Position numbers and translations under genes: made by a program. The notes beneath the pieces were generated by a model. The model was not told where the DNA came from and searched no databases. It was given only the letters and a program-made list of their open reading frames with translations. Below, piece by piece: positions 42,031-64,000 of a stretch of 64,000 nt of DNA. Position 1 is the stretch's first letter; each line of letters begins with the position of its first letter. Source of the stretch: Candidatus Glassbacteria bacterium (GTDB lineage Bacteria; Gemmatimonadota; CAZMKB01). The stretch covers positions 38,064 to 102,063 of the forward strand of contig JBHIFB010000001.1 of the NCBI GenBank assembly GCA_046760905.1, in the 5' to 3' direction.

Positions 42031-43506
42031 ATGAAACAGATTTTCTATTTCACAATTATGATTTTCAATGTCATCTTTGTCCTTCCCGGTCAACTGACGG
42101 ATGGAAGGTTCCAGGGAGAAATTGGGAAACAGGAGCTGATAAGGCAACAGAATCCAGGGAGCAGAGCAATTATCAATTATGCGGGTAACAGGCCTCAATA
42201 CACTCCGGGTGCTCGTATTAAGGGTGGGACAGGTTCGAGTGGTATAGAGAAAGACGAATTTGGTGGATTGAAAATCTCAAAGTTTGAGGCGACGGGATTT
42301 TTCCGGCTAGAGAAATTAGATGGAAGGTGGTTTCTAGTGACACCTCAGGGCCATCCCTTTTATATAGTTGCTATAGATGGTGTAACACCATGGTATAAGG
42401 ACTACAAGAATACATCCTTTGAAACGAGATATAAGAAGAGATTCATATTATGGGCCAATATCGCCGTTGATAGAATCAGTTGGTTGGGGTTTAATACATT
42501 AGCGCATAAAACCGCCGAACAATGCATAGAGCAAATGGTAAACGGTAACGTCTGGAAAATCCCGTTCACAGTATTGGTGCCATTTGTGGAGAAGAAGACT
42601 TTTCCTGATGTTTTTTCTGAAGATTTTAGAAACCTAGTAGACCGTAAAGCGAAAGAATATTGTGAGCCATTGAAGGAGGAGTCCTATCTCGTGGGATATT
42701 TTCTCGGTAATGAACTCGATCTTAACCTTTACCGCCGTGGAGAAATAGACTGGCGAACCAGGTGGGTGAGGGCTCTTCTGAGTCAGGAACCTGACACACC
42801 GGCCAGAAGACAGTTTGCAGCTCTGCTTGAGAAAAAATTCCATACTATCGATGAACTCACCGAGGAGTTCGGTGAATTAAAACCGCGCTTTAGCTCCTTT
42901 GATGAGATAGGATTCAATCAAATATGGCCTGCTTTCAAGAAGGGGATCCCGCAAGCTGTTGAAATCGTGAAAGCCTACAATGCTCAAATAGCCGAAAGGT
43001 TCTACAAGCTGACCAGTGAAGCAATAAAAAGATATGATGGTAATCATCTCATCCTGGGATCGAGGTTTGCCAACGACGCAGAGATAGAAGTGTTGAACTC
43101 GACCAGAGATTATACCGATGTCGTCTCCTTTAACAAATATCCTTTAAAAGGACGGTTGCCGGTCTCTCTCTATGAGAAGATGTATGGCAATACAGAGAAG
43201 CCTCTATTTCACACAGAGTTTTCATATCTCGAAGAGGGCAGGGATGGGAATTATCCACCCGCACCGGACCAGGAGACCCGTGGGCTGTATTATACTAAGT
43301 TGGTGAGGGCAATGGTTGAAGTCGATGAAGTAGTGGGGTACGGTTGGCATGAGATGTTCGATCCAAAATATGGATCGAATTTCGGCCTTTTCGATGTACA
43401 TGATGAATTATACTATGATGCGGCGAAGCATATAATGGAGGCAAATCGACTTGTTGAGAGAAGATTCGCTGAGATAATTGCAAAGAAGATCAATGGGAGG
43501 AAGTGA
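42031..43506 (+). CDS. putative clan GH-A (TIM-barrel) glycoside hydrolase, secreted
   Basis: Signal peptide. Candidate acid/base motif LGNELD and nucleophile motif HTEFSY with appropriate spacing for GH-A enzymes. Confidence 0.45.
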   Translation: MKQIFYFTIMIFNVIFVLPGQLTDGRFQGEIGKQELIRQQNPGSRAIINYAGNRPQYTPGARIKGGTGSSGIEKDEFGGLKISKFEATGFFRLEKLDGRWFLVTPQGHPFYIVAIDGVTPWYKDYKNTSFETRYKKRFILWANIAVDRISWLGFNTLAHKTAEQCIEQMVNGNVWKIPFTVLVPFVEKKTFPDVFSEDFRNLVDRKAKEYCEPLKEESYLVGYFLGNELDLNLYRRGEIDWRTRWVRALLSQEPDTPARRQFAALLEKKFHTIDELTEEFGELKPRFSSFDEIGFNQIWPAFKKGIPQAVEIVKAYNAQIAERFYKLTSEAIKRYDGNHLILGSRFANDAEIEVLNSTRDYTDVVSFNKYPLKGRLPVSLYEKMYGNTEKPLFHTEFSYLEEGRDGNYPPAPDQETRGLYYTKLVRAMVEVDEVVGYGWHEMFDPKYGSNFGLFDVHDELYYDAAKHIMEANRLVERRFAEIIAKKINGRK

Positions 43507-43614
43507 TGTCACATGATGCCTGAGGAATACCTGAACCGGCTCAGTTGACAAGCCCTCTCGTTCATGCTATCATCATATCACCTTCCGCGACATCCTGTGA
43601 TAAGGAAGAACTTC

Positions 43615-45042
43615 ATGAAACCGTGCTTTTACATCATGCGGGCGACCAGGTGGATGCGGTTGTGTTCCATCCTGATAATGATTTCGCTCATTTATTGTGC
43701 CGGGCGGAAGAAGCCCCCAAACGTGGTCCTAATAATGGTCGATACCTTGAGAGCGGATCACCTGTCATGTTTGGGGTCGAAAGAGCTGCTAACACCAAAC
43801 ATTGATTCCATCGCAGAAGAGGGATTCCTGTTCACGAATGTCCACGCGACAGCACCAACCACACTCGCTTCGACGAGCTCACTCATGACATCTCTTTATC
43901 CAAGAATGCATGGAGCAGCATGCAATGGCCTCCAGCTTCACAGTTCTCTCCGTACTCTGCCTGAAGAATTAAGGAGCAAAGGTTATACAACCGCTGCGTT
44001 CGTTTCATCTTTTGCTCTCCACTCGAGCACGGGGATCGACCAGGGTTTTACCTACTTCGATGAAGCATTCGACAAGACATTTGGCAGTCCCGAAATTCAG
44101 AGAAGAGCAGGTGATGTCAATAGTGCAATCTACGGCTGGTTATCAAGGAGACCTTCTGAGCCCTTCTTCCTATTCGTGCACTACTTCGACCCGCATCCTC
44201 CGTATACACCACCCCCACTGTTCCGTGGGACTGGAAGCGAGGACACTGGAACAGAGATCACCGGATCATGGGAAGATCTGGTCGAGCTCAAATACTATCT
44301 GAGCGAGGGAGGAGAAGTGGACGCCCGGCTCGAGCGAATGCACCGTCTTTACATGGGAGAAGTGAAATATACAGACCATGAAATAGGAAAACTGATGGAC
44401 ATGCTCGAAGAGAGTGGCTTCCTTGAGAACTCACTTATAGTCTTCACGGCTGATCATGGAGAGACATTTTGGGAGCATATGGAGATGGGTGAATACCTGG
44501 ATCACGGATACATGGTGTATGAGACGACGACACACATTCCCCTTATCATAAAATGGTCGGGGAAGGTGCCAGAAGGTGTGAGTGATATGATGGCGAGCAA
44601 CATCGATATCGCCCCAACCATTATAGATCTGCTCGGATTTACCGTACCGAAAGGTTTTGCAGGAAGAAGCCTCGTGAGAGTAATGGAGGGACGGATGACA
44701 GAGGATGTGCCGGTATTTTCCGAAGCCACTAAGCCACACGGCGAAATAGAGTTGGAAACTGCTTTCAAGAACGACCGAAAAGCGAAATGTGTTTATATGG
44801 GCGGCTGGAAATTCATATGGGTACCGCACCTAAATGACCAAGAAGAACTGTACAACCTCACCCTGGACCGATCGGAGTTGAGAAACCTTCTAAAGGAGAG
44901 TGTGCACTCAGATAAGGTAAAGGCTATGAGATGGGCACTACGACAGTGGACACTGGAGGTTTCCAAAGTTGCGCTAGGTCGAAGCTATGAAATGGATGAA
45001 GAGACGCGGGAGAAACTCAAGACGCTCGGCTATGTTCAGTGA
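43615..45042 (+). CDS. sulfatase-like hydrolase/transferase (alkaline phosphatase superfamily), membrane-anchored
   Basis: VVLIMVDTLRADHLSCLG metal-binding N-terminal motif, one N-terminal transmembrane helix. No CxPxR formylglycine motif was seen. RBS AAGGA before the ATG at 43615. Confidence 0.7.
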   Translation: MKPCFYIMRATRWMRLCSILIMISLIYCAGRKKPPNVVLIMVDTLRADHLSCLGSKELLTPNIDSIAEEGFLFTNVHATAPTTLASTSSLMTSLYPRMHGAACNGLQLHSSLRTLPEELRSKGYTTAAFVSSFALHSSTGIDQGFTYFDEAFDKTFGSPEIQRRAGDVNSAIYGWLSRRPSEPFFLFVHYFDPHPPYTPPPLFRGTGSEDTGTEITGSWEDLVELKYYLSEGGEVDARLERMHRLYMGEVKYTDHEIGKLMDMLEESGFLENSLIVFTADHGETFWEHMEMGEYLDHGYMVYETTTHIPLIIKWSGKVPEGVSDMMASNIDIAPTIIDLLGFTVPKGFAGRSLVRVMEGRMTEDVPVFSEATKPHGEIELETAFKNDRKAKCVYMGGWKFIWVPHLNDQEELYNLTLDRSELRNLLKESVHSDKVKAMRWALRQWTLEVSKVALGRSYEMDEETREKLKTLGYVQ

Positions 45043-45259: not shown

Positions 45260-45309
45260 GAAAATTGAGTTGTCATTCGACAGGCAACTTTTCTATTATA
45301 TTTTTTAAG
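45260..45309. terminator. imperfect hairpin plus T-tract between convergent genes (candidate bidirectional terminator)
   Basis: GAAAATTGAGTTGTC...GACAGGCAACTTTTC followed by TTTTCTATTATATTTTTT. It overlaps the 3' end of the minus-strand gene. Confidence 0.25.
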
Positions 45310-46799
45310 ATCGATTCATCTATTCGTACCATACGGTATATTCCGCCACGTTTCGGCTTCTCATCAATCGATTCGGGTTTCTTGAAGTCGGGATTGTAGA
45401 AACTCCACACAACCTGTCCATCAGTCGTTACTTCGAATACACGACCTTTGTTTGTTTCTGTAATCAATACGTTCCCATTTCCTAATTTCTGGCAGCCTCC
45501 TCTGGATTTCGAGAAAAAGGAGTTCGATGGATTCCCTTTATATGTCCAAACAATGCTCTTTTGCTCCGGGTCCACCTCGACGATTCGAGAAAAGCGTCTT
45601 TCTGCGCCATTGTCAAAGACAATGATATTTCCGTTTGGAAGAACAGAGGGTTGATGAGGTTTGTCAAGATCCTTCATTCCCCAACTCCATACAACCTCTT
45701 CTATATCGGGATCGATTACCGCTATTAGATTCAGTTCCCTGATGCATATTAGCATATCCCCCTGCTTCCAAAACCCTTTCCGGGCTGTTTCAATGACTTC
45801 TATTGTGTTCGAATGAAGAACATCTGCCGGGCTCAAATGTAATATTGCAATCTTGATCGCATCATCCTCTCTGGAATTACCGCTGACTATTTCCCTGTAC
45901 AGTTTTTTGTGCAGTTTAAACAGCTTCCTCAATTTTTGTTTCCGCCCTTTTCTCAACCTGCCCTTAACGAATGTCAACATGTTCCTCAGGGATTTAATAA
46001 GCGATTTTTCCGGCTTCTCTTCTTGTAGATCTACATCATTCTCTGGAAAGTTTTTTTGGATGATTTTCCACAGTTCTCTTTCTAATTCTTCGTTCTTTTT
46101 CAAAACTTCAATAATTGATATGCGACGTTTTACTTTACCATCCTGCGATAGGATTACAATATGATTATCCAACACCTGAAGCTTTCGACCGGAATGGTTA
46201 ACAGTCACAGGCACATCGACTATCGTGTATATATCGCCATTTTCCGAGATAGAAATATCGTGATGAGCGGATATTTCGGCTTTCCATTTTACATTCGAAT
46301 ACCAATCCAATTTAAGCAGCATGTGGTGGGAGCCGATCACGAACAAATTGCCATTCTTATCCATCTCGATATGATTCCAGCCCTCGTAATGTCGTGGAGT
46401 CGCCTTGTCGAAACGTTCTATAACTTTCTGCTTGGCCGATCCCGCTTCATCTGAAGACCAGGTGTGGACAACCCGACCATCCATTGTTATCAAATGCGCT
46501 TCTGTTCGTGCCCTTGAATTGTAGAGGTTGAGGCCCTGATAAGATAATTCAGGGATATATTCGGTGACACCGGCACTTCCTGAATCCTTTTCGTCGACCG
46601 GGACCCAGTTGACATATCCAAGGTTTTCTAGCTCCTCAAGCTGATCCTCCGATAAACCGCTCTTTCTTTCAACCGCTGTGTCTTTCTTCTTTGTAATAGA
46701 TTCCTGCTTCTCACCGCAGGCCGCTGACAAGAGAGAGAATATTATGAGATTGGCGAGAACCAACCATTTACTTATGCCCGAAGAACTTATTTCTTCCAC
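45273..46799 (-). CDS. secreted/lipoprotein beta-propeller protein, arylsulfotransferase (ASST)-like
   Basis: Lipoprotein-type signal (LLSAAC). Repeated propeller-like blades (NGNLFVIGSHHMLLKLD, DHIVILSQDGKV). The family assignment is tentative. Confidence 0.4.
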   Translation of the reverse strand: MEEISSSGISKWLVLANLIIFSLLSAACGEKQESITKKKDTAVERKSGLSEDQLEELENLGYVNWVPVDEKDSGSAGVTEYIPELSYQGLNLYNSRARTEAHLITMDGRVVHTWSSDEAGSAKQKVIERFDKATPRHYEGWNHIEMDKNGNLFVIGSHHMLLKLDWYSNVKWKAEISAHHDISISENGDIYTIVDVPVTVNHSGRKLQVLDNHIVILSQDGKVKRRISIIEVLKKNEELERELWKIIQKNFPENDVDLQEEKPEKSLIKSLRNMLTFVKGRLRKGRKQKLRKLFKLHKKLYREIVSGNSREDDAIKIAILHLSPADVLHSNTIEVIETARKGFWKQGDMLICIRELNLIAVIDPDIEEVVWSWGMKDLDKPHQPSVLPNGNIIVFDNGAERRFSRIVEVDPEQKSIVWTYKGNPSNSFFSKSRGGCQKLGNGNVLITETNKGRVFEVTTDGQVVWSFYNPDFKKPESIDEKPKRGGIYRMVRIDESILKNIIEKLPVE

Positions 46800-47293: not shown

Positions 47294-48271
47294 ATGAAAG
47301 TCCCAAAGATCATGGATATACCATACAAGTATGTGCGTAAACGCATCCCGCCAGGTCTTTATATCAAACTGCAATCCTCAATCGGGCGCAGAAAAGCATA
47401 TTATTCTTCAGATTATTATCTTAATATCGCCGCGAGATATGAGAAGAACATACCGATTCGTAACAAAACCATATTGGAAATCGGACCCGGTAACGAGATC
47501 GCTGTGGCTATATTGATGGTGCTTCTCGGTGCCAGAGAGGTATACCTTGTGGATAAGATAAGCGGTAATCCCTTTGCTTCACACGGAAGTAGCAACGATG
47601 AGGAATACGCCGAGAAATATTTGAGGATATTCCAGCAGAGCGAACAATTCCATGATCGAGAGCCGGCCGTCTCTCTCCCGGGGGATATTCTGGCAAAAAT
47701 TCATCAGATCGATTCGTTTTTCACCGCCCCTGAACTGCCTGAGTTAATGAGGGATGTAAAGGCGGATTGTATCGTCTCTAACTTCGTTCTCGAACATATC
47801 AATGATCTGGAAACAGTATTCATCAATATGAACCGGATACTGCGTGATGATGGTGTAATCTACCACCAGGTTGATCTGTCAGACCATACCTATCACGTAT
47901 TCACGAAGTACAAATCCACCATCCCATTGTTCACGGATAACATTCTGCTGCATCTTGAATACTCTGATAGTACCTGGTCGCTCCTGGACGATCACAAATG
48001 CATACCGATGAACAGGCGGACGCTACCATGCTACCTGGATCTGTGTGATAAATACGGATTCCGCGTGGATCGTTTAAAAACAACGCTTGTGGATAAAAGT
48101 TTCCACGTACACCGTGATGTTGTGAATTCGATCGCTCCCAGGTATCGAACGCCGGAGTTCCTGAATCTCTCATCCTTCGAGCTCAGGGCGGTTAGGGATA
48201 AACCTGGTAAAGATAGTCACGGAGCCTCTGCCGATGCTACGGTCAGTGAGGGGAAGGAAACGAATGTCTGA
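47294..48271 (+). CDS. class I SAM-dependent methyltransferase
   Basis: Motif I ILEIGPGNE and an acidic motif II (VYLVDK). Confidence 0.7.
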   Translation: MKVPKIMDIPYKYVRKRIPPGLYIKLQSSIGRRKAYYSSDYYLNIAARYEKNIPIRNKTILEIGPGNEIAVAILMVLLGAREVYLVDKISGNPFASHGSSNDEEYAEKYLRIFQQSEQFHDREPAVSLPGDILAKIHQIDSFFTAPELPELMRDVKADCIVSNFVLEHINDLETVFINMNRILRDDGVIYHQVDLSDHTYHVFTKYKSTIPLFTDNILLHLEYSDSTWSLLDDHKCIPMNRRTLPCYLDLCDKYGFRVDRLKTTLVDKSFHVHRDVVNSIAPRYRTPEFLNLSSFELRAVRDKPGKDSHGASADATVSEGKETNV

Positions 48272-48287: not shown

Positions 48288-50195
48288 TTACCGGATGTAA
48301 CCGAGGGCCTTTAGCCTTTCTTTGATTTCGGCATCAGCATCCGAGGAAATCGCCACCGGTATCATCTTTTCTCCGGTCTCATACGTATCAATGTATCTTA
48401 CCGGATGTCTCTCCAGGAAACCTTCCTCGATCACCTCGGTGAGAGGGCGCCCATCCATATCGAGGGCGACCGGCAGTCCAAATAGTGTGAGTATTGTGGG
48501 AGTTATGTCGAATATGGAAGCGCCGCTCAAGCTCACTCCCCTTTTGATGTTCTCGCCTGCAAGTATTATGATTCCTTTGCGCCTGTGTTTACCCGAGTAG
48601 CTTGTACCGGCAAGGTCAAGTTCACTGCTCCCTTCCTCCTCCCAAGCACCGAACCCATGATCTGAGAGGATGAGGTAAGTGACATCGAGGGAATTAACGG
48701 CGATGTGCTTTCCCACGACATCATCAAGGAAAGAATAGTATTTCCGGATAATATCACCGAAAAGCCTTATATCCTCCTTTCTCACACCATCGAAATGGGT
48801 GGGATCCATGTACTTCCAGAACAAATGTGACGCGAAGTCGGGTCCCCAGAAGTAAGTGATATACAAAGAGGTCGGGTGATTTTCCAGCATGTAGACGCTC
48901 AATTCCGCCATGTAGTTATCTCTTTTGAAGTGACGCCTGAAGGAGTTGAAATTCTCTTTCACTCCGCTTGTGGCAATGATCGAGAAGATGCTGTCGCGTT
49001 CGAGGTCTTTCCATGGGCTGAGGAAAAGCGAGATGGCTTTCTCATCTGTGAAGAATGCATGCTTTGGATACTGTTTCAGTAAATCTGGTGGATATACCGA
49101 CATTTCCGTGGCCCACTGGATTCTGCTCGTGATTACATAACCCCTTTCGATTGGCTCAGCAGGCCACAAACTCCACAGGCCCACTACTCCCACATCGAGC
49201 CCTGACTTGCTTATAATTTCCCAGCTCCTTGTGCATTTTCTCACGGTGCTGGTCGTAGGAATCGTCTCAACCACGTTTTCAACGACTGGAAGTCTAAAAG
49301 GAAGAACAGACTTCATAAGAGGCAATCTCATGACCGCGAAATCGAAGATCCCATGCTTTTTCTCCTTCTTCCCGGTAAATATGGATTCCCATATCGCCGG
49401 GGTTCTCATACCCATCCCCGCACTATTCGTAAAAGCCTTAAGCGTGGAAACATTCGAGAGCAGAGGGCCATACGACCCATTATCCATCAGGAATTTTATA
49501 TTCGGGAGTTTTCCTCTTTCTATCATCCCATCCATGATGTCCCAGGTAGCACCGTCGAGACAGATGATCACGAGCCGGGAACCGGTTTCTTCACGCAGGA
49601 GGGTGGGAGGGGTCGACCCATCAGCGCTGCCGGGGCCACTTATTTGTGAAACGTAAAATGCAACGGCTGATAGAAGGAGAGGAGCACACAGGATGAGGAT
49701 GATATAACGGGCAGCTTGTTTCTTGTTCGATCTACTGAAGGCTCTCTTTATTTTCAGTGGGATGTCCTTTAACGAGATTCCTACGCCGAGGCATATCGCA
49801 CATAAGATAAAAAGCACAGGCAAAAACCACCGGCTCCTGAAGTCGAATGGTCTGTCAATGAGCATCCATAAGAGCATCAGAATCGATAAGAAGACGGGAA
49901 CCGAAAAAGCAATCGTATAGATGGCAAGAGGCTCGAGGAGTCTCCCTCTTCTTCTCAGGATTGAATCGATACCTGCGACAGGAAGCCAGAGTATTACGCC
50001 CAGGAGGGCGAGAGAGACAAGTGAGAGCAAAAGCACATACAGCTGTAGTATCAAAGTGTCGCGAAGCAGGACCGGCATGCCAACTATGAAGGACAAGCCA
50101 TAGAAAATAACAAGGGAATACGGAATACTGAATCCCAAACCGCAGAGGACAGAGCTTCTACAATATGTCGCCAAAGGGATCTTCGAATCATTCAT
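48288..50195 (-). CDS. membrane-anchored alkaline-phosphatase-superfamily enzyme (type I phosphodiesterase/nucleotide pyrophosphatase-like)
   Basis: About 190-aa polytopic N-terminus, then VIICLDGATWDIM metal-site motif and a C-terminal LSDHGF. 635 aa. Confidence 0.65.
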   Translation of the reverse strand: MNDSKIPLATYCRSSVLCGLGFSIPYSLVIFYGLSFIVGMPVLLRDTLILQLYVLLLSLVSLALLGVILWLPVAGIDSILRRRGRLLEPLAIYTIAFSVPVFLSILMLLWMLIDRPFDFRSRWFLPVLFILCAICLGVGISLKDIPLKIKRAFSRSNKKQAARYIILILCAPLLLSAVAFYVSQISGPGSADGSTPPTLLREETGSRLVIICLDGATWDIMDGMIERGKLPNIKFLMDNGSYGPLLSNVSTLKAFTNSAGMGMRTPAIWESIFTGKKEKKHGIFDFAVMRLPLMKSVLPFRLPVVENVVETIPTTSTVRKCTRSWEIISKSGLDVGVVGLWSLWPAEPIERGYVITSRIQWATEMSVYPPDLLKQYPKHAFFTDEKAISLFLSPWKDLERDSIFSIIATSGVKENFNSFRRHFKRDNYMAELSVYMLENHPTSLYITYFWGPDFASHLFWKYMDPTHFDGVRKEDIRLFGDIIRKYYSFLDDVVGKHIAVNSLDVTYLILSDHGFGAWEEEGSSELDLAGTSYSGKHRRKGIIILAGENIKRGVSLSGASIFDITPTILTLFGLPVALDMDGRPLTEVIEEGFLERHPVRYIDTYETGEKMIPVAISSDADAEIKERLKALGYIR

Positions 50196-51394
50196 AAATT
50201 CCCCATCCCCTTTATCGGTATACCACGAGTCTTAGCATATTCCTCGATAATCTCGACTGTCTTCCTCGCGCGCACATCCCAGGTGTTCGCCCTTGCTACC
50301 CTCAAGCGCTCCTCGATTTTATCCTCTCCCTCAGCAAGTGCCTTTTCCAGTGCTTCGATAAAATCCTCTGTCCCTTCACAGAGGTATAGAACGTTCTGAT
50401 AATCGGCAAGTGCCGGAATGTAAATTGACACCACGGCTTTCCCACCGGCAAGGTGCTCAAATGTTTTTGTCGGGAATGCGTATTTGCTCCAATCTCCCTG
50501 ACGGTAAGGCATATAACAGACATCAAGGCCTTTCGTGTATGCCGGTAATTCTGCGAGTGTCTTCTTCCCGAGAAAATGTACGTTACCGATACCTTTCACA
50601 TGGGAAGGTACTGGAGTGAAGTGAGGACCAATTAAAACCTGATGCCAGTGTGGTCTTCGCTTTGAAATTTCTAAAATAAGCTCCCAGTCCATTCGGAGAT
50701 TGTCGATGTTGCCGATGAAGCCTATACGGGGGTGGGGAATCGAGTCGAGATCCTCAGGAATCACTGCATCCGGGCTCAACGCTTGCTCGAAAAGTCCGGT
50801 ATCGACTCCCGGTGGAAAGAGATAGGTTCTTGGATGGATTTTGCTCTTCGCTTCGTAGAGCGTTTTCGTGGTCGTGAAAACTATGTCTGCTTTCTCTATG
50901 AATTCCCTCTCGAGACGGCTGAGTCCCAGTTTTCTCCTCTTCGGAATCACGAAAGCAGAAACCTCGTCATGGCAGCCATAAATGACTAACTTACTACCGA
51001 GTCGGGGCGAAGGGGAGATCATAAACGGTGCGTACACCCAGAGAATCGGTTCTTCGAATCCAATTTTCTGGAAGACCTTTCGTAACGACCGTTCTATCCT
51101 CTTCCTGTTGAACCTGTCGTTCGCCCCTAAGATCCCGTACTGGAGTAAAAGCGGTGGCGGAGTGTAAAGATACATGTTTTCGTCGATTGTTTGAATGCCG
51201 GCTCTCCAGTTCTTCCACTGCTTCTTGAGATTCGGGATAAGCGAAGGGTGGAGAAGGAACGTGGCTAGTGAGAATGGGGGGTCCACGAATAAGACTCTGT
51301 TCTCCCTCTTCAGTTTGTTCATCATGTGATGCATTAAAAGGGGTACGAAATCATACGTCACCCATGAAAGGCATACGATGTTCTCACCCTTCAT
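50192..51394 (-). CDS. glycosyltransferase (GT-B, family 1/4-like)
   Basis: GT-B C-terminal half with a conserved E...E-like region. Overlaps the downstream gene by 4 nt. Family assignment is moderate. Confidence 0.55.
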   Translation of the reverse strand: MKGENIVCLSWVTYDFVPLLMHHMMNKLKRENRVLFVDPPFSLATFLLHPSLIPNLKKQWKNWRAGIQTIDENMYLYTPPPLLLQYGILGANDRFNRKRIERSLRKVFQKIGFEEPILWVYAPFMISPSPRLGSKLVIYGCHDEVSAFVIPKRRKLGLSRLEREFIEKADIVFTTTKTLYEAKSKIHPRTYLFPPGVDTGLFEQALSPDAVIPEDLDSIPHPRIGFIGNIDNLRMDWELILEISKRRPHWHQVLIGPHFTPVPSHVKGIGNVHFLGKKTLAELPAYTKGLDVCYMPYRQGDWSKYAFPTKTFEHLAGGKAVVSIYIPALADYQNVLYLCEGTEDFIEALEKALAEGEDKIEERLRVARANTWDVRARKTVEIIEEYAKTRGIPIKGMGNL

Positions 51395-56035: not shown

Positions 56036-57019
56036 TCAAATCATCCTCTTTATATCACTCTTACTCTTCAATTTTTCAAGGAGGGCTTCCATCTTCTCGC
56101 TGGTCTGTCCTCTCTTCAAAGTTTGTTCGATCGATTCCTCGACCTCTTCAAAGCTAGAGTAGCCGGCTCCTTTTCTATCGTAGACTTTTATGATGTGATA
56201 ACCATAATTTGTCCGGACAACCCCGCTCACCTCTCCCACCTTCAATGCGAACGCCGCTTCCTCGAAGGGTTTCACCATTTTTCCGCGTGAAAAATATCCC
56301 AGGTCCCCACCCTTTACCGAGCTGGGACAATCGGAGTATTCCGTGGCCAGAGTTGAGAAATCTTCTCCGTTATTGATCCTTGCGAGCAAGTCATCTATTC
56401 GGTTCTTTTTGCTCTCAATAGAGTCGGGCGGTTCATCCTTGTCCACCTGAATCAGGATGTGTTTGGCCCCCACCTGCTCGTCGTGTTTGAACTCCTCTCT
56501 GTGTTCTTCGAAATACGCAGCTTTCTCTTCAGGAGTTACCTTGGTCTTATTCGTGATATTCTCCTCGATGTAGTTTGTTATAGCTACACTGCGGGAGACC
56601 TGGTGTCTTAATTTCTCTTCTGATAAGCCCTGTTTCGCCAAAGCTTCGTTGAATATCTCCTCACTCGGATACTGGCTCTTTATGTTCGCAAGTTCACGGG
56701 AAAGTTCATCCTCAGAAACTTCAAATCCCACTTTCTGGCTTTCCTGGTAGAGGAGCTCGGTCGATATCATCGTCTCGAGTATTTGATTTCGCAGCGAGTC
56801 CACTTTGGTAGAATCGAACTGCATGCCGAATGCCTTGTACCGTTCGATAAGGCCATCTAACGTAGTCTGAAGATCCTCCATGGGGATCACCGCCCCGTTG
56901 ACAATGGCGGCCGCTTCTATCCCCGCATCTTGCGACTTCGATGAACACCCTGTTATTTGAATGGCCGCCACCGGAAGGATCAATAACGACGCAAGCAACG
57001 ACACTCTCATCAATTTCAT
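56036..57019 (-). CDS. parvulin-type peptidyl-prolyl cis-trans isomerase (SurA/PrsA-like), lipoprotein
   Basis: Lipobox-like ITGCS. Parvulin domain FSTLATEYSDCPSSVKGGDLGYFSRG...YGYHIIKV. Confidence 0.8.
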   Translation of the reverse strand: MKLMRVSLLASLLILPVAAIQITGCSSKSQDAGIEAAAIVNGAVIPMEDLQTTLDGLIERYKAFGMQFDSTKVDSLRNQILETMISTELLYQESQKVGFEVSEDELSRELANIKSQYPSEEIFNEALAKQGLSEEKLRHQVSRSVAITNYIEENITNKTKVTPEEKAAYFEEHREEFKHDEQVGAKHILIQVDKDEPPDSIESKKNRIDDLLARINNGEDFSTLATEYSDCPSSVKGGDLGYFSRGKMVKPFEEAAFALKVGEVSGVVRTNYGYHIIKVYDRKGAGYSSFEEVEESIEQTLKRGQTSEKMEALLEKLKSKSDIKRMI

Positions 57020-57184: not shown

Positions 57185-59338
57185 TCATCGTATGTATCCA
57201 AGAGCCCTCAGGTCCCGCAGCGTAGCTTCATTCAGATCGGGGAGAGATTCCTGATCAAGATCCTTCACTTCCACTGAATGTTTCCAATCCTCTATGGCTG
57301 TCAGCAGATTGTTTGATTTCTCTTTATCTGCCTCAATTAAGTTGTTGACTTCATCCGCATCCTTCAAAATATCATACATCTCATGTCTGTTGCTTTCGGA
57401 AAATATGAACTTGTAATTCTCCTCAATGAGTGAAGTGAGCCGTTCGTAGAAGCGGCCATTATACGTGTTTTTATAGTTCGGCCCCACGTAGTGTTCCGAT
57501 ATAATAGGATGCCGGATTTCCTGAATCAAAGCCCCGCCCTGCACACCGCCGGGGATCGGGATGTCGAGTATTTTCAATATAGTGGGCATGATATCGATCG
57601 TCTGGACAGGTTTATGGGTGTCAACATCCCAGTCGATGTTTCCAGGCGCGTGTATGATGTGCGGAACCCTGAGGACAGGTTCGTAGAGGCCGACACTGTG
57701 TCCGAAGAGTTTCTTCTCACCCAGGTATTCTCCGTGGTCGCTGGTTATAACTATGATACTCCGCTCATAGAGACCTTTGGACTTCAACCATACGAACAGC
57801 TCTCCCAGATTTTCATCCAGATATGCGATCTCGCCATCATACTGGGATTCCAGGTGATGTATCTGTTCTTCGGAAACTTCTTCATGGTTCTCACCGAACA
57901 GATGGATGTCTACATGGAATCTTTCTATCTTTCCGGGGAACATTCGTTGATATTCCGGGGGTGGGATATAGGGATCATGAGCATCCATATAGTTGATGAA
58001 CATGAAGAATGGTGTATCACTGTGGATGTTGATCCACCTGAACACCTTATCATTGATGTCTTTCGCTATCCTGAAGGGGGAAAGGTAAGGCCTAACACGA
58101 TTCTGGAGCAGGTTCGATTTCATGAGAATTGTATATGTCACCGGCTTGTACCTGAAGGGGGGACTGTTATAGAAGTAGTCGAAACCCTGATCGAGTCCGA
58201 ATATACCAGAAACACAAGTGTGATTGGATACTACCGCAGCGGTCCGATAGCCTTGCTCGTGAAGGACCTCTGCGAGCGTCACCTCCTCATTTCCCAGAGG
58301 GAAGCTGAAGAAAGGGTTTATGCGTTCATCCTTCAGGAGAGAATCACCGATGGCTTTGTGCGCTCCATGAGAGATGGAATATCTCCCGGTAAAGATCGAA
58401 GCGTGACCGGGGACTGTCCAGTTTGCAGTGGAGTAGCAGTTTTCGAATTTCATAGAAGACTGGCTGAAATCATCCAGCTGCGGACTCGTCTTGCGGTTAT
58501 AGCCATAGCAGGAGAGATGATCAGAGCGTACGGTATCTAATACGATAAGAATGACATTGGGGCGGTCTTTGCCCGGAAGTTTCCCGGGAACAGGGATCCT
58601 CCGGCTGCGGTGCTCGGCGAGGAACCAGTATGACGAAAATAGCAGAATGTAAAAAAGCATGTAACTGAAGAATATCTTGAGAGCGATGTATCTTGCTGAG
58701 CTTCGCCGGCTGAGAAACCTCTTCATGAGATCTGTGACCGGGAACGAAAGGAGAAAACAAGCGACGCTGGCTATAAACAAAGTAAAGATCTGGAATATGA
58801 CATGGCTGTAAACGACCTCGTATGGTTTCTGGTAATGTATGCTCAAAAGGGCGACACAGAATGTAGTGAGTAGAAGCCCAAATATCAGTTTCATCCTCGG
58901 CAGGTCCGGCCATCGTGTCTGCATGCGTGAGATGAGTGAGAACAGAAACAGGCAGAGAAGCGCCCACAGGCAATCAATCAGTATGCTTGGGGTTTCCGAT
59001 ATCCTGCGGCCGAACATGAACAGATAATTTATGATTATTCCGCCCTGGATTATAATGATTAATAAGGGGATGAGCAGAAGCATACAGGACTCTTTCCTGG
59101 AATCAGAAAGAAGTATTCTACCGAGACTCCCTACGATTGGGGACATGATCCACGACAGTGTCCCCAGTAATGCTCCCATTGATGCTGAAATCAAAGCGGT
59201 GAGAATAATGACATCGCAAAAATACTGATCGTTCACAAGAAGGGCGACAGTCGATTCGACGGCAAAGAGTACGAGGCCACATAAAACTCCGAAAAACATG
59301 CCCATAAATATGCCGGAATAATCTGATCGAGTCTTCAT
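57185..59338 (-). CDS. polytopic membrane sulfatase-like hydrolase/transferase (LtaS/OpgB-like architecture)
   Basis: About 250-aa multi-transmembrane N-terminus followed by PNVILIVLDTVRSDHLSCYGY and a C-terminal ITSDHGE. Confidence 0.75.
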   Translation of the reverse strand: MKTRSDYSGIFMGMFFGVLCGLVLFAVESTVALLVNDQYFCDVIILTALISASMGALLGTLSWIMSPIVGSLGRILLSDSRKESCMLLLIPLLIIIIQGGIIINYLFMFGRRISETPSILIDCLWALLCLFLFSLISRMQTRWPDLPRMKLIFGLLLTTFCVALLSIHYQKPYEVVYSHVIFQIFTLFIASVACFLLSFPVTDLMKRFLSRRSSARYIALKIFFSYMLFYILLFSSYWFLAEHRSRRIPVPGKLPGKDRPNVILIVLDTVRSDHLSCYGYNRKTSPQLDDFSQSSMKFENCYSTANWTVPGHASIFTGRYSISHGAHKAIGDSLLKDERINPFFSFPLGNEEVTLAEVLHEQGYRTAAVVSNHTCVSGIFGLDQGFDYFYNSPPFRYKPVTYTILMKSNLLQNRVRPYLSPFRIAKDINDKVFRWINIHSDTPFFMFINYMDAHDPYIPPPEYQRMFPGKIERFHVDIHLFGENHEEVSEEQIHHLESQYDGEIAYLDENLGELFVWLKSKGLYERSIIVITSDHGEYLGEKKLFGHSVGLYEPVLRVPHIIHAPGNIDWDVDTHKPVQTIDIMPTILKILDIPIPGGVQGGALIQEIRHPIISEHYVGPNYKNTYNGRFYERLTSLIEENYKFIFSESNRHEMYDILKDADEVNNLIEADKEKSNNLLTAIEDWKHSVEVKDLDQESLPDLNEATLRDLRALGYIR

Positions 59339-59793
59339 CGGGCCTTCTGTCCAAAAGTTCTTTCCAGCATGACAGGTAGAATGTTAAAGCCACAGTCTGT
59401 ACTTGTCAATTTATACCGGATGGGACTTATCAAAAAGAGCACGGGTAAGGCTAAAGTATCTATCAGCTTAGGAGGGATTTAAAATCGTGCTCTGGGCGTC
59501 AGGCAGATGAAATTATTACCTGTCAAGGAGGAAGTTTTTGACTTCCCTTAAATCGGGAGAGAGTAAGTTTCCTCGGGTTAGATGCCTCATGCCGGGGCAA
59601 GTCGTGGGAGTGGTAAATCCGGGGGGCTTTAGGCCGACAAATGAAAATTTCGGCACAGGAATTGCCATTTAAGATTGTGTTTGGAAAGAATGCTAAGATT
59701 AATCATAGGCTAAACTTGAAAAGACATGCGGTTTTTTTAACTTTTCATTGACTTGTGACTCTCTTGAAGGGAGTTATTAAGGGGAAGGTGAAG

Positions 59794-60558
59794 ATGGTTC
59801 ATTCGAGAATATTCCTATTTCACATTGCAGTTTGCGCTGTTCTGCTTACCTGTAAATGCGGGGGGAACCAGATCAATTCGCATCCATCTGATCCAACCGC
59901 AGTTTCAGGAAAATCCGCCCAGGATACGCTGATCGATCTGGAGGAGATGACATCCGAATACAAACTCGGATTCGGAGATCTCATCGAGATAAAGTTTTTC
60001 TACAATCCTGAACTCAATCAGGAACTCATAGTAAGGCCCGATGGGCGGATCACCCTGCCGAGGCTCGGTGATCTGTTCGTCGTAGGCCTTACACCTTCTG
60101 AAATAGATGAAATAATCACAGCGAAGTATTCCGAAATAATAAGAGATCCCGACATTACAGTTATTGTGAAATCCTTTGCGAGCCAGGTCGTATACGTCCT
60201 GGGAGAGGTAAACATGCCGGGAGGCTATGATCTTGTGGTGAACATGACTACCCTACAGTCGATAGCCCTTGCAGGTGGATTTACAAAGAATGCCAATCCG
60301 AAGAGCGTGATACTGATACGGTCAAAGGGCAAAGTTGCCGAAGCTGAACGGATAAACATGTCGAAGGTCATAGATTCGGGGAACCTAACTGGAGACCATG
60401 TGCTCAGACCCTTTGACGTGGTGTATGTACCGAACAGGTTTATCGACCGTGTGGACCTTTTCATGGAGAAGTATTTCGAGGGACTTCTTCCCCCATTCAA
60501 CCTTTATTTGAGAGGATATGATTCCGTCTATCCCAGGCGTTCGATAAGAGTACGATGA
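59794..60558 (+). CDS. polysaccharide export protein (Wza/KpsD family: Poly_export + SLBB)
   Basis: LGFGDLIEIKFFYNPELN...RPDGRITLP...LTPSEIDEII carries the Poly_export signature. ATG at 59794 after a GGGGAAGG RBS. Confidence 0.8.
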   Translation: MVHSRIFLFHIAVCAVLLTCKCGGNQINSHPSDPTAVSGKSAQDTLIDLEEMTSEYKLGFGDLIEIKFFYNPELNQELIVRPDGRITLPRLGDLFVVGLTPSEIDEIITAKYSEIIRDPDITVIVKSFASQVVYVLGEVNMPGGYDLVVNMTTLQSIALAGGFTKNANPKSVILIRSKGKVAEAERINMSKVIDSGNLTGDHVLRPFDVVYVPNRFIDRVDLFMEKYFEGLLPPFNLYLRGYDSVYPRRSIRVR

Positions 60559-60564
60559 GATGAG

Positions 60565-62031
60565 GTGACCCATATGCAAATGGAAGAATTCTCATTTAGC
60601 GAAGTCGTTGATATCCTGAAAAGAAACTCGAAATCAATCTACCGCTGGATCATTGGGATTACGATAGCCGGAGTGCTTGTGGCATATCTGTATCCACCGA
60701 CATACGAGGCATCTTCAAAGGTGATCGTGAAAAGGGCGGGTCAGAACATCAGCCTTTCCGATCAGGCTTATGATCCGAACAACGTAAGGGTCACCATGGA
60801 GGATCAGATAAACACTGAGATGGAAATAATTCGAAGCCGGCCCGTTCTCGAGAGGGTGGCTGAAAGACTCGAGCTACAGCCCGGTAAAACGGCAGAGGCA
60901 ACAAGCTCGTTTATCAGAACAGCAAAGGAAAAAGTCACTCAAGCATTCGGCGCAGTGTTGCGTTCTCTGGACCTGAGGCCGGAGGTTTCTGCGGTGGATG
61001 CCCTCTGTATAGAGCTTAACGACAACCTCACCCTCAATCCGATTCTCGACTCCTCAGTGATCGAGATAATCGCGTCTGCAGATTCGCCGGAGATAGCAGC
61101 TGCCCGTGCAAACTTGATCACTGAAGAGTATATGAAGTGGCATCTGGAAGTATACAGGGGTAAAGGTGCTTCTCAGTTTTACAATGAGCAGCTTGTTGAA
61201 ACGAAGGCGAAGCTTGAGAGGCTTGAGGATGAGCTTGCAAGCTACAAGGAGAAGGAGGGGCTTGTTTCCATAGAAGAGACTAAGGCGAACCTGCTCGAGC
61301 AGCTCTCATTACTGAACACATCATTCAGTGAACTCGAGAAAGAGATTATCAGTGAGGAATCGAATCTCAGGATCATAAAAGCACAGGTGAAAGCGGATGG
61401 GGACAGACTCATTCCAACCCTTGAAATAGGGGAGATACCCTGGATACAGGAAGCCAGGAACAACCTGATGGAACTCGAACTGAAAAGGAACGAATTGGAG
61501 CAGAAATACACGATGACCCATCGGGAGCTATTAAACCTCGAGGGAGAAATCAAGCTCACTCGTGATTTTATCAGAAGCGAGGTTCAGAAGGTGATTGAAT
61601 TGAAGGAGGTAGGCCTCAGGGGCCTTAAGACGGAGAGGAGTGCTCTTAAAAAGGTTATAGATGACATTCAGGCCCGGATCAACGAGCTGCCAAAAAAGGA
61701 GCTTATAATAAGAAGGTATGAGCGAGCCATAGACGATACAAAGGAGATATTCGGTAGCCTGTCCCTGAAGATGGAAGAATCCAATATTACAGAATCTTCC
61801 GACGAAAGAGTCGTGAACATAAAATTAATAAGCAAGGCGCATCCTCCCCCCGCCCCGGCCTTCCCCAACAAGATACTCACCATTTTCATTTCACCTTTTC
61901 TCGGTATGATATGCGGTATCACACTTGCTATTATAAAAGAGCTCGGGTCCAGGCGCTTGACCGAAGAGAAGGAAGGTGGAGAAGGGGTCGGTGTCCCGGT
62001 TGCTTCTGATCTTACCGAGCAGAGAAGCTGA
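60565..62031 (+). CDS. polysaccharide co-polymerase (Wzz/GumC-type), second copy
   Basis: N-terminal transmembrane helix (WIIGITIAGVLVAYL), long coiled-coil, and a C-terminal transmembrane helix (ILTIFISPFLGMICGITLAII). Confidence 0.65.
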   Translation: MTHMQMEEFSFSEVVDILKRNSKSIYRWIIGITIAGVLVAYLYPPTYEASSKVIVKRAGQNISLSDQAYDPNNVRVTMEDQINTEMEIIRSRPVLERVAERLELQPGKTAEATSSFIRTAKEKVTQAFGAVLRSLDLRPEVSAVDALCIELNDNLTLNPILDSSVIEIIASADSPEIAAARANLITEEYMKWHLEVYRGKGASQFYNEQLVETKAKLERLEDELASYKEKEGLVSIEETKANLLEQLSLLNTSFSELEKEIISEESNLRIIKAQVKADGDRLIPTLEIGEIPWIQEARNNLMELELKRNELEQKYTMTHRELLNLEGEIKLTRDFIRSEVQKVIELKEVGLRGLKTERSALKKVIDDIQARINELPKKELIIRRYERAIDDTKEIFGSLSLKMEESNITESSDERVVNIKLISKAHPPPAPAFPNKILTIFISPFLGMICGITLAIIKELGSRRLTEEKEGGEGVGVPVASDLTEQRS

Positions 62032-62075
62032 GTTTTTATACTCGAAGCAGAAGATGGAGATTTTCTCATCCTCAG

Positions 62076-63203
62076 GTGAAGAGAATGCATGACACCTGTG
62101 CAGTATATCAGACAAGTGGAACAGGCAACTTCGAGATTAAGAAGATGACGGAAGAGGACAAAAACGATGTCCTGGAGCTCGTGAAGTCGGTTTGGGGAGA
62201 GGATCTCACAAGGAGCAAGATGATCCAGTGGGAGTGGCTCTACGGGAGGAACCCGAATAATCCTCCCGAAGGTCCGAGAGCCATGATAGTGAGGGACGCC
62301 GGGAAGGTTGTCGGCCTGTTCAGATGTATCCCTGCACCTTTGAAGATCGGGAATCGATATTTCATGAACGACTGGAACGTGGATCTTATGATCCATCCTG
62401 ATTACAGAGGGAAGAGGCTCGCACTGGATCTTGCGCACGCTCTTCTCAGCGAGGGCGACGTGAATACGGGCCTTCCCCTCACAAACTCCCCCACTTACAG
62501 GATACTCACTAAACTGAATGGGCGGTTCATCGACGTGGCCCCATTCCATCAGATAATCCGGCCGATAAGGATGCACATATACGCCAAGTCAGTCCTAAAG
62601 CTACCCGGCATATATCATGTGTTCGCCGCAATGTTGAAACTCTACTATATCTTGATTGTTGACAGGAGGGGGCAGGAGCCGGATCGGACGCTAATTGTTG
62701 AGGAGATCGGCAGATTCGACAGCTCTTTCGAAGATTTCTGGGAGAAGGTACAGCAGGACTACCCTGTAATCATCAAGCGTGATCCACGGTATCTGAACTG
62801 GAAATTCATAGAGAGGCCAGACTGCAAATATACTGTTTTCAGGGCGGTGCGGGAGAGGGAGCTCGCAGGTTATGTGGTGGTGAGAAGCGATGAACGGTTC
62901 GGCGTCAGGACGGGTTTTATAGTTGACATCCTAACCCGGCGTGATGATGTGAGAGCGATCGATGCACTCCTCTCGAGAGCGATCCAGAAGCTGAGAGATG
63001 ACGGAGCAGACCAGATCAGCGCCCAGGCCTTCTTTGTCGCCACATTCAAACGATCGTTCAGAAGAGCGGGTTTTATCAAGAAGCCGAGCAGGAGAGTGAG
63101 GAGGATCGTGCTTACCATAAACAACGATTCAGTGCCTAGAGATGTGCTTATTAATCCCAAAAACTGGTTCATAACCCGAAACTATGCTCATCAGGAGATG
63201 TAG
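62076..63203 (+). CDS. GNAT-fold acetyltransferase (FemAB/Acetyltransf_6-like)
   Basis: GNAT core around HPDYRGKRLALDL. About 375 aa, a size typical of EPS-locus FemAB-like acyltransferases. Confidence 0.5.
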   Translation: MKRMHDTCAVYQTSGTGNFEIKKMTEEDKNDVLELVKSVWGEDLTRSKMIQWEWLYGRNPNNPPEGPRAMIVRDAGKVVGLFRCIPAPLKIGNRYFMNDWNVDLMIHPDYRGKRLALDLAHALLSEGDVNTGLPLTNSPTYRILTKLNGRFIDVAPFHQIIRPIRMHIYAKSVLKLPGIYHVFAAMLKLYYILIVDRRGQEPDRTLIVEEIGRFDSSFEDFWEKVQQDYPVIIKRDPRYLNWKFIERPDCKYTVFRAVRERELAGYVVVRSDERFGVRTGFIVDILTRRDDVRAIDALLSRAIQKLRDDGADQISAQAFFVATFKRSFRRAGFIKKPSRRVRRIVLTINNDSVPRDVLINPKNWFITRNYAHQEM

Positions 63204-63204
63204 A

Positions 63205-64000
63205 ATGAAACCAATTTATCTAATCTGCCTCTTGACCTGCTCGGCCCTCATGACGGTCTGCAGCGTTTCCAATACGACGAGCTCCACTTCTGGATCCGAA
63301 GGGGACCAGGGTGTAGCCCCACTGAAAGTGGAAGGAAGGTATATGATAAACGAGGAGGGAAAGAGGGTGTGGCTTGTTGGGTTTCAGGTGCCCTGGATAT
63401 TCCTTCGCGAAGGGAGGACGGTGGAGAAACACAGGGAATTCGTTCAAAAGATCGGGGAGCGGGTAACCGATTTCTACGATGCAGGATTCTCCAACTGGTT
63501 CACCGCTGAGGATGTGAAGCAAATAGCAGAGATGGGGGCAAACTGCATAAGGCTCACCACGGTCTTCTGGACCTATGAGGAAGAACCGTACAAATATTCG
63601 GATGCTTCTTTCAGAAGGCTCGATCGCGTCATCGAAGAATGTGGAAAGCGGGGAGTGTATGTTGTTCTCAGCTGCAACTCCGCTCCAGGCGGGCAGAATC
63701 CGGCGGGGCACGGGGGTGCTGGGGGAAGGAATGAGTACTGGATGGTGGATGAATACCAAAAGAGGTATGTCTCGATGTGGAAGGAGATCGCAGGGCATTA
63801 TAAAAATTCTACCGCCATTGCCGGTTACGACGTACTAAACGAACCAGCGCCTCCAGATGACGCATCGCTCGCCAGGGCATACCGCGACATCGTGAATGCG
63901 ATAAGATCCACTGGGGACAGACACATAATCTTTCTTCAATATCCCCTCAAGGCGGGTGCTGATGTGCCCATTATCGAGGGAGAGAACATCGCGTACTCAT
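63205..64000 (+). CDS. glycoside hydrolase family 5 (cellulase-like) lipoprotein; 3' end runs off the right edge
   Basis: Hand translation MKPIYLICLLTCSALMTVCS... includes ANCIRLT and the GH5 acid/base motif VLNEP. No stop codon inside the window. Confidence 0.65.
   Translation, partial: MKPIYLICLLTCSALMTVCSVSNTTSSTSGSEGDQGVAPLKVEGRYMINEEGKRVWLVGFQVPWIFLREGRTVEKHREFVQKIGERVTDFYDAGFSNWFTAEDVKQIAEMGANCIRLTTVFWTYEEEPYKYSDASFRRLDRVIEECGKRGVYVVLSCNSAPGGQNPAGHGGAGGRNEYWMVDEYQKRYVSMWKEIAGHYKNSTAIAGYDVLNEPAPPDDASLARAYRDIVNAIRSTGDRHIIFLQYPLKAGADVPIIEGENIAYS

Follow-up and report, generated by a model that had tools for sequence, protein, structure and literature searches.

What do proteins that look like sulfatases do when they lack the sulfatase active site, and why are they encoded among genes for polysaccharide export? 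The question is raised by a stretch of 64,000 nucleotides from a metagenome-assembled genome of Candidatus Glassbacteria, a lineage assigned to Gemmatimonadota in the literature (contig JBHIFB010000001.1, positions 38,064 to 102,063), called the window below, in which the region from 42 to 64 kb encodes three enzymes of the alkaline phosphatase (AP) superfamily (g43564, g48288 and g57185) and an arylsulfotransferase (ASST)-like propeller next to an outer-membrane polysaccharide export (OPX) lipoprotein and two polysaccharide co-polymerase (PCP) proteins. We assigned gene families by Pfam and NCBIfam searches, which covered the window open reading frames (ORFs) of at least 150 aa. Besides, Logan contigs (runs SRR29324583-86; 8-9 kb, all within the window) repeat parts of the region with the same gene calls. 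It turned out that all the gene classes named by an original prediction, made from the DNA letters without database searches, lie at or near their predicted places, including the domains of a Wza exporter, two Wzz co-polymerases, one glycosyltransferase (GT) and a methyltransferase.

We read the 42-64 kb region as part of an OPX/PCP-type locus for assembly and export of a surface polysaccharide, equipped with periplasmic tailoring enzymes. Our confidence in this full model is middling, and it is much higher for two of its parts, namely that this is an exopolysaccharide (EPS)-type export locus and that the sulfatase-like proteins are not sulfatases. Decoration of the exported glycan with phospho- and sulfo-groups in the periplasm would explain the enzymes best.

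Sulfatase-like enzymes with threonine in place of formylglycine

Two of the AP enzymes have the S1 sulfatase fold: g57185 (57185-59338, minus strand; PF00884, 1.7e-47), with 7 transmembrane (TM) helices ahead of a predicted periplasmic catalytic domain, and the exported g43564 (43564-45042, plus strand; PF00884, 1.5e-49). For the AlphaFold2 (AF2) model of g57185 (pLDDT 83), the best Foldseek matches were SpAS1, choline sulfatase, phosphonate monoester hydrolase (PMH) and carbohydrate sulfatases (E ~5e-19), and the top 50 were all S1 sulfatases or PMH. With SpAS1 (4upi), choline sulfatase (6g5z) and RlPMH (2vqr), g57185 shares the overall fold, the DHG metal motif, the SGSH_C subdomain, the His of the H-x-P-Y motif and an N-terminal D-x-x-R-x-D-x-L-x-x-Y-G segment resembling the SpAS/PMH group.

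The active sites differ from those of these relatives in several respects. The formylglycine motif C/S-x-P-x-R is absent from both proteins, as indicated by a regular-expression search and by alignment to solved sulfatases; at its position phmmer aligned T308-V-P-G-H312 of g57185 (with 7stt and 4upi), of the form T-x-P-x-H, and T100-L-A-S-T of g43564 (with 7oz8 and 4upi). In both proteins the second metal-ligand Asp is Thr, so that the Asp-Asp pair reads D-T (D268-T269 in g57185), and the Arg/Lys of the sulfate pocket is replaced by His/Asn; we take N372 and H547 of g57185 to be the Lys positions from the context of the sulfatase motifs (GKWH; K..YEGG.RVP). The site residues of g43564 are the T100 nucleophile, D60, H211 and D297/H298. 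With Thr at the formylglycine position and without CxPxR, formylglycine cannot form, and the two proteins are therefore not formylglycine sulfatases. Ordinary sulfatases were rejected on these aligned residues, in agreement with the original prediction, which had noted the missing motif and argued against sulfatase activity.

Among 21 homologues of g57185 (27-50% identity), D268, T269, R271, D273, H312, H454, D534, H535 and H547 are invariant and T308 is nearly so, being Ser in one of the 21. Since the replacement residues are conserved across homologues, the active site appears to be remodelled and not decayed, and this S1-like form has more than 580 species representatives. An alcohol nucleophile is the hallmark of phosphoryl-transfer enzymes in the AP superfamily (NPP, EptA, LtaS, PafA). 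Judged by their aligned residues, the Thr-type sulfatase- and phosphodiesterase-like enzymes are probably phosphoryl-transfer enzymes.

The N-termini of the two proteins are different. Seven N-terminal helices were predicted in g57185 by AF2 and hydropathy, and this fusion to a 7-TM domain is a further difference from S1 sulfatases and PMH; g43564 has a signal peptide only, or a doubtful lipobox, and no polytopic domain. Its start at 43615 is more plausible because it yields a signal peptide, while the 43564 start lies 57 bp beyond the preceding glycoside hydrolase (GH) gene. The expectation of three membrane-anchored AP enzymes thus holds for the two polytopic ones (7 and 5 helices in the AF2 models) and not for g43564. 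Thr-type S1-like enzymes with the conserved C-terminal end are also found in archaeal metagenome-assembled genomes (L020, L034 and L062: Thermoproteales, Thermoprotei and Bathyarchaeia), which indicates that the enzyme guild is not limited to diderm bacteria with OPX/PCP export.

An NPP/PhnA-like enzyme and the layout of headgroup transferases

The third AP enzyme, g48288 (48288-50195, minus strand), combines 5 TM helices with a predicted periplasmic NPP/PhnA-like domain (PF01663, 6.3e-15; 56 bits against a cut-off of 23). Single-sequence PDB searches with g48288 or with the ASST-like protein gave nothing significant, and matches were obtained by profile only: the family profile of g48288 found PhnA (2.7e-13) and Xac NPP (5e-12) with the nucleophile Thr aligned. 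Its conserved columns D214, T265, D453/H457, D512/H513 and H537 correspond to the two-metal site of the NPP type. The AF2 model (pLDDT 81.5) has five N-terminal helices and its best Foldseek matches are ENPP1 and Xac NPP. This NPP-like family is large, with 11,663 cluster representatives at E <= 1e-3 in an exhaustive HMMER search.

In both g57185 and g48288 positive charges lie on the N-terminus and on the even-numbered loops (hydropathy, AF2), which indicates that the catalytic domains face the periplasm. A polytopic N-terminus followed by an extracytoplasmic AP domain is also the layout of BcsG (phosphoethanolamine, pEtN, on cellulose), OpgB/OpgE (phosphoglycerol or pEtN on periplasmic glucans), GacH, EptA/EptC/MCR and LtaS, which further share with the two enzymes a Thr/Ser nucleophile, a metal site and genes within or coupled to glycan biosynthesis. 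BcsG (bioRxiv 10.64898/2026.09.23.753746) and OpgB/OpgE (PMC3818809) are membrane-anchored AP enzymes which transfer phospholipid headgroups to glycans. The original prediction had suggested a comparison with LtaS, EptA and OpgB; the layout of the two enzymes is indeed alike, and membership in the curated NCBIfam models is absent, with best scores of 45.7 bits for EptA (cut-off 561), 37-45 for LtaS (970) and 21.5 for CptA (404). True LtaS/EptA family members were ruled out by these curated scores and by the fold neighbours. Unlike the headgroup transferases, g57185 is nearest to S1 sulfatases and PMH and g48288 to NPP and PhnA, and their 7 and 5 TM helices are of unrelated sequence and combined with a C-terminal LGY motif (see below). 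The likeness to BcsG, OpgB/E, EptA and LtaS is one of design, not of family membership, and we infer from it transferase and not hydrolase chemistry, the identity of the group moved and the glycan as acceptor.

The ASST-like propeller lipoprotein

The fourth tailoring candidate (45273-46799, minus strand) is an ASST-like beta-propeller and probable lipoprotein (Cys28), which matched PF14269 (1.1e-19; 71.5 bits against a cut-off of 27) and PF05935 (3.5e-11; 43.2 against 24.2). The profile of its family, built from 29 sequences, found the sulfotransferase 9kf6 at 1e-9 and E. coli ASST (3elq) at 3e-3. H180, H329-x-N331, H382 and R405 are invariant in the family. The site residues of EcAST are His252, His356/Asn358, Arg374 and His436 (PMC13426309), and H180, H329-x-N331 and H382 mirror its His252, His356/Asn358 and His436; by match coordinates H382 falls at 435-436 of 3elq, where the profile match is weak (3e-3, 0.09). 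R405 is possibly the Arg of the site, and the equivalent of Arg374 is not strictly conserved. The His/His-x-Asn/His constellation of E. coli ASST thus appears to be kept; the original prediction had singled out the active-site His residues for inspection.

In common with the PAPS-independent ASSTs (E. coli ASST 3elq; Cpz4-type PF14269; 9kf6), the protein has the propeller family, the extracytoplasmic location, H382 at the apparent sulfohistidine position, the H-x-N pair and the further invariant His H180. It is set apart from them by very low identity, the lipoprotein anchor, a lysine-rich insertion, an N-terminal LGY motif and the polysaccharide-locus setting. The insertion (residues ~245-320) is Lys/Arg-rich and probably helical (…LRKGRKQKLRKLFKLHKKLYRE…), lies between propeller segments and gave spurious PPR-repeat matches in the PDB search. 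The review PMC13426309 describes sulfation of a sugar hydroxyl by the ASST-type enzyme Cpz4 and notes that most natural substrates of ASSTs are unknown. The sulfated EPS of Actinoplanes involves PAPS-type sulfotransferases, not ASST.

A motif common to the four putative tailoring enzymes

All four tailoring enzymes carry the motif Φ-x-x-Φ-[KR]-x-L-G-Y-Φ, called LGY here, at the C-terminus in both AP branches and near the N-terminus in the propeller. The three AP proteins finish in L[KR][AT]LGY[IV][RQ]: g43564 in LKTLGYVQ (LKTLGYV at 45016-45036, plus strand), g48288 in LKALGYIR (LKALGYI at 48294-48314, minus strand) and g57185 in LRALGYIR (LRALGYI at 57191-57211, minus strand). The ASST-like lipoprotein contains LENLGYV (46611-46631, minus strand) in its N-terminal linker, as LENLGYVNW at residues 57-65, shortly past the lipobox. 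When the whole window was scanned in six frames for L..LGY[IVLM], 5 matches were found against a mean of 0.46 in window shuffles; four of the five are those in the tailoring enzymes, and the fifth spans a stop codon of a frame that is not coding.

The motif is conserved among relatives. L710, L713, G714 and Y715 are invariant in the alignment of g57185 homologues, and the motif stands at the C-terminal end of 80 of 120 homologues of this 7-TM enzyme and 20 of 26 NPP-like proteins, and in the N-terminal part of 42 of 120 ASST-like ones. It is present in 139 of the 149 best representatives of the NPP-like family. All three families share one anchored consensus, h-x-x-h-[KR]-x-L-G-Y-h, with acidic residues ahead of it. 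In 84 related loci with 2814 ORFs, most of the motif occurrences (86 of 106) fall in AP-family ORFs. In both AF2 models the motif forms a short helix beyond a low-confidence linker: in g57185 the linker 695-700 has pLDDT <50 and the motif helix 704-712 ~60-70, and in g48288 the motif helix 621-630 has ~76.

In 22 NPP-like representatives the motif is internal, and arrays of tetratricopeptide repeats (TPR) start about 10 residues after it in 10 of 10 tested; in a sulfatase-TPR fusion from the related locus L004 the TPR array follows the LGY motif as well. Fusions of the order [TM]-AP domain-LGY-TPR, 650-1350 aa long, are common among relatives (L004 3776-5755; P0304, P0323, P0327, P0346 and others), and P0296 has two Phosphodiest domains ahead of the TPRs. 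We know of no characterised member of this architecture.

A literature search for LGY motif strings found no description. That the motif occurs in both AP branches as well as in a propeller unrelated to them, on linkers and at one or the other terminus, suggests a modular interaction element and not a piece of one fold. We propose that it is a putative docking or assembly tag, through which the enzymes would meet a shared partner at the export machinery. A wider proposal, which we put forward tentatively and regard as possible but rather doubtful, is that LGY is an undescribed linear docking tag of a large guild of S1-fold, NPP-like and ASST-like enzymes and recruits them to a common scaffold, maybe of the TPR type, as many members have a TPR array fused immediately behind LGY. 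In that case the guild would form a modular system for periplasmic tailoring in many bacterial phyla and some archaea, and the Thr-type S1 enzymes a new class of phosphotransferases from the sulfatase branch. A 607-aa TPR protein encoded in the 22604-29120 gene string of the window could conceivably be the partner in trans, but its gene is 17 kb away from the locus and has no connection with it.

Export core, glycan genes and accessory proteins

The OPX gene (59755-60558, plus strand; Poly_export PF02563 1.6e-21, SLBB_2 2e-12) is transcribed divergently from g57185. Its 267-aa product is a short Wza-type lipoprotein with the Poly_export (PES) motif, a single SLBB, about 40 residues beyond it and a lipoprotein signal ('LLTCKC' after a hydrophobic stretch). 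Such a short OPX presumably has no outer-membrane helix barrel of the Wza type (Wza D4) and would need a separate porin. The two PCP paralogues, at 52103-53494 (minus strand; Pfam; TM segments 21-39 and 418-436) and 60565-62031 (plus strand; Wzz 2.2e-11, GNVR 1.1e-7), both have the Wzz N-terminal domain, a GNVR segment and two flanking TM helices. Pfam found no kinase domain in either, so they are not PCP-2a proteins. NCBIfam pepcterm_ChnLen and EpsF matched the first paralogue and EpsF the second (3.5e-37), all under cut-off. A lipoprotein peptidyl-prolyl isomerase (PPIase) of the SurA/PrsA type (56036-57019, minus strand; Cys25; Rotamase_3 2.7e-32, SurA_N_3 7.6e-20), encoded downstream of the 7-TM enzyme gene, had a weak EpsD-family match (2.4e-6, under cut-off) and is possibly part of the system. 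A PEP-CTERM/XrtA system was considered and rejected, as the related NCBIfam matches were all under cut-off and no exosortase was found in the window.

The locus resembles Wza-Wzc (OPX-PCP) and PEP-CTERM/EpsD-F-type EPS loci in that a Poly_export+SLBB lipoprotein adjoins a two-TM Wzz/GNVR protein and in its accessory genes for glycosidase, acyltransferase and PPIase. It differs from these systems in the short OPX with one SLBB, the two PCP paralogues, the lack of a tyrosine kinase and the lack of Wzx, Wzy, an initiating phosphoglycosyltransferase or an exosortase within the window.

The glycosyltransferase is a TuaH-like GT4 protein of 400 aa (50192-51394, minus strand; Glyco_trans_1_4 3.6e-9; NCBIfam TuaH 7e-29, below cut-off), and its stop overlaps the start of g48288 by 4 bp. 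The class-I S-adenosylmethionine (SAM) methyltransferase (47294-48271, plus strand; 325 aa; Methyltransf_23 2.5e-12, Methyltransf_11 4e-6) is cytoplasmic, with no signal peptide in the sequence-feature analysis. The acyltransferase (62076-63203, plus strand; 375 aa) has the GNAT fold (Acetyltransf_9 4.5e-9), and the predicted FemAB-like nature was not confirmed: neither FemAB (PF02388) nor Acetyltransf_6 (PF13480) matched, only Acetyltransf_9/1 on residues 20-126, and no NCBIfam or PDB sequence match was found. The predicted glycosidase of clan GH-A is a secreted GH50-like protein of 491 aa (42031-43506, plus strand; N-terminal hydrophobic signal), which matched the catalytic domain of the Saccharophagus beta-agarase Aga50D (4bq2; phmmer 1e-25), with a Pfam GH42 match under cut-off. 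The predicted GH5 enzyme is also present, as the 5' part of a lipoprotein gene which exits the window (63205-64000, plus strand; PF00150 7.9e-18). The ORF listed at 63220-63798 (minus strand) has no matches and odd composition, lies opposite the GH5 frame and was rejected as its shadow.

Two small minus-strand genes, called in the three independent Logan contigs L001-L003, encode proteins of 94 aa (51572-51856) and 77 aa (51868-52101), in both of which a charged N-terminal part precedes a single C-terminal TM helix. The genes are packed tightly downstream of the first Wzz gene with gaps of 1 and 11 bp. The 94-aa protein had no Pfam or NCBIfam match and the 77-aa protein no NCBIfam match; both may be accessory subunits of the PCP.

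Related loci and gene neighbourhoods

Relatives of the locus combine the same enzymes with more glycan genes. For example, locus L006, whose 7-TM orthologue has 45% identity, contains GT2, TM-Phosphodiest, Wzx, Acetyltransf_6, Wzy_C, sulfatase-like, Bac_transf and Phosphodiest genes; there the 7-TM orthologue gene abuts or overlaps the Wzy_C gene, and three further AP enzymes are present. The original prediction would have been weakened by a lack of Wzx/Wzy-type partners in the flanks, and such genes are absent on the upstream side here and present in L006. In L004 (50% identity), the orthologue and Poly_export form a divergent pair like that of the window, and GT9 and GT4 genes are present. 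Two other Glassbacteria have an operon of Sulfatase, TM-Sulfatase, amine-oxidase-like, four GT4 and TM-Phosphodiest genes, at the end of which the overlap of GT4 and TM-Phosphodiest is retained.

Since phmmer searches of the window proteins against the 84 related loci were too insensitive for GT, OPX and PCP genes, we used a Pfam census instead, which covered 29 loci from many phyla and 113 genes near TM-fused S1-like ones. Further AP genes prevail among these neighbours (Phosphodiest 20, Sulfatase 18), followed by PMT_2 (4), TPR (3) and methyltransferases (3). In locus L091, the sulfatase-like gene beside the ASST-like orthologue (42% identity) is split into two ORFs (9780-11803) and reads W-T-V-P-G-V, with the His lost and another C-terminal domain in place of the LGY tail; it may be a decaying or divergent copy.

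Weighing the explanations

Several observations weigh against decoration of an exported glycan. Among the window ORFs of at least 150 aa there is no Wzx, Wzy, initiating phosphoglycosyltransferase, synthase or ABC transporter, and the whole 64 kb has a single GT. The genes expected of a single interleaved locus are present but not contiguous, with a molybdopterin oxidoreductase and the SurA-like PPIase inside; the molybdoenzyme gene splits the locus and has core-like GC (0.53) within a low-GC region. Both TM enzymes miss all curated LtaS, EptA, OpgB and MCR cut-offs, and the idea of a lipid donor draws on architecture alone because the catalytic domains come from other AP branches. No aryl-sulfate donor pathway is evident for the propeller. 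Generally, TM-fused S1-like genes mostly adjoin other AP genes, glycan genes not being among the commonest neighbours, and the ASST-like/sulfatase-like pair of L091 stands outside any EPS context. Besides, the docking function of the LGY motif is putative in its entirety.

Some of these observations fit a catabolic or scavenging role, in which the AP enzymes, the ASST-like protein and the glycosidases would degrade external phosphorylated or sulfated glycans or organophosphates and stand beside OPX/PCP genes by coincidence or as a result of island mosaicism. The two glycosidases are assigned to an agarase family (GH50) and a cellulase/mannanase family (GH5), g43564 has a signal peptide only and begins 57 bp past the GH50-like gene, the AP genes cluster with each other and not with EPS genes across phyla, the L091 pair lies among unrelated genes, and the NPP and PafA-type relatives are hydrolases. 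We nevertheless consider this role unlikely. The window contains no SusC/D, TonB receptor, sugar transporter or Pho-regulon gene, desulfation is excluded by the absence of the formylglycine motif, and a polytopic membrane anchor is unusual in scavenging hydrolases. Moreover, the translational coupling to GT4 is kept in relatives, Wzy, Wzx and Bac_transf genes adjoin in L006, and glycosidases are routine in EPS loci (PslG, BcsZ, PelA).

The small number of GTs, one in the window and no Wzy, would be accounted for if one or both TM-anchored AP enzymes acted like LtaS and built a poly(alditol/glycerol-phosphate) or another phosphodiester-linked polymer from lipid headgroups for export by OPX/PCP. 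LtaS likewise has an N-terminal TM bundle and, outside the cytoplasm, an AP domain whose nucleophile is Thr, and weak LtaS-model matches were obtained (1.5e-9 and 5.7e-12), but their 37-45 bits are far under the cut-off of 970, the closest folds are those of S1 sulfatases and NPP and not that of LtaS, and the abundance of GT4, Wzx and Wzy genes around the relatives fits decoration of a sugar polymer better, so we hold such a synthase to be improbable. It seems less probable still that the sulfatase-like proteins are pseudoenzymes or YejM/PbgA-like sensors regulating envelope or EPS biogenesis. The loss of the canonical sulfatase nucleophile and several pocket residues would suit this idea, as would weak YejM-model matches (6.7e-9 and 4.4e-8), whereas the invariance or near-invariance of T308, H312 and H547 and of the ligands D268, D534 and H535 across homologues of 27-50% identity, in a family with more than 580 species representatives, has the pattern of a conserved altered active site.

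Setting of the region and other features of the window

Positions 1-42 kb of the window are taken up by housekeeping genes (such as FtsH, TilS and enolase) and, upstream of the polysaccharide region, a leucine/isovalerate catabolic cluster, which ends at 41770. The GC content is ~0.55 up to 42 kb and ~0.45 beyond. The polysaccharide locus continues past the window end; a metagenome scan with the GH5 fragment yielded distant and short contigs only. The molybdopterin oxidoreductase within it (53769-55721, minus strand; 650 aa; Fe4S4, Molybdopterin and Molydop_binding domains) is cytoplasmic and not an EPS gene product; it has no Tat or signal sequence and no adjoining partner subunits, and its best NCBIfam matches (Fdh-alpha, NasC) are far under cut-off.

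In the housekeeping part, two tRNA-Met (CAT) genes (7491-7566 and 13106-13182, both minus strand), 5.5 kb apart, are the sole Rfam/ARAGORN matches in the window. A gene for a B12-binding radical SAM enzyme (8846-10381, minus strand) overlaps a GNAT gene (8236-8853, minus strand). In the gene string at 22604-29120 (minus strand), proteins of 1136 aa and 430 aa without Pfam match are encoded on either side of the 607-aa TPR protein.

Proposed mechanism and implications

Under the favoured reading, periplasmic decoration of an exported glycan, the GT4 protein and further GTs encoded elsewhere would build the glycan in the cytoplasm, where the SAM methyltransferase and the GNAT protein may add methyl and acyl groups. 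The export core would consist of the short OPX lipoprotein and the two kinase-less PCP proteins. In the periplasm, g57185 (T308, mononuclear site D268/D534/H535) and g48288 (T265, two-metal site) would act through a covalent phospho-threonine intermediate and, by analogy with LtaS, OpgB, EptA and BcsG, move a phospho-headgroup from a membrane lipid to a glycan hydroxyl. The soluble g43564 (T100) would more likely edit or remove phospho-groups. The ASST-like lipoprotein, with its apparent sulfohistidine-type site, may pass sulfate from an aryl-sulfate donor to the glycan, and the GH50-like and GH5 enzymes may trim or release chains. The LGY tag on its flexible linker would dock all four group-transfer enzymes at the export machinery.

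Glycan decoration by AP-superfamily enzymes is already known, and the locus itself is of an ordinary type in an uncultured lineage. What distinguishes it is the origin of the enzymes in the sulfatase and NPP branches, Thr in place of formylglycine, the TM fusion, and an undescribed motif held in common with ASST-like propellers. If the reading is true, these enzymes would represent a second and a third evolutionary route to chemistry of the BcsG/OpgB type, and the finding would be relevant to the surface chemistry of bacteria that abound in sediment and soil. The LGY motif offers an experimental handle for a partner search and a simple sequence rule for recognising the guild.

Thousands of proteins from uncultured phyla are annotated as "sulfatase" or "arylsulfatase A-like", and a large subset of them cannot be sulfatases. 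In Glassbacteria and their relatives, the genes for such Thr-type proteins are integrated with those for glycan assembly. Should these proteins attach phospho-substituents to exported polysaccharides, the sulfatase counts of metagenomes, which are often taken as capacity to degrade sulfated glycans, would need correcting.

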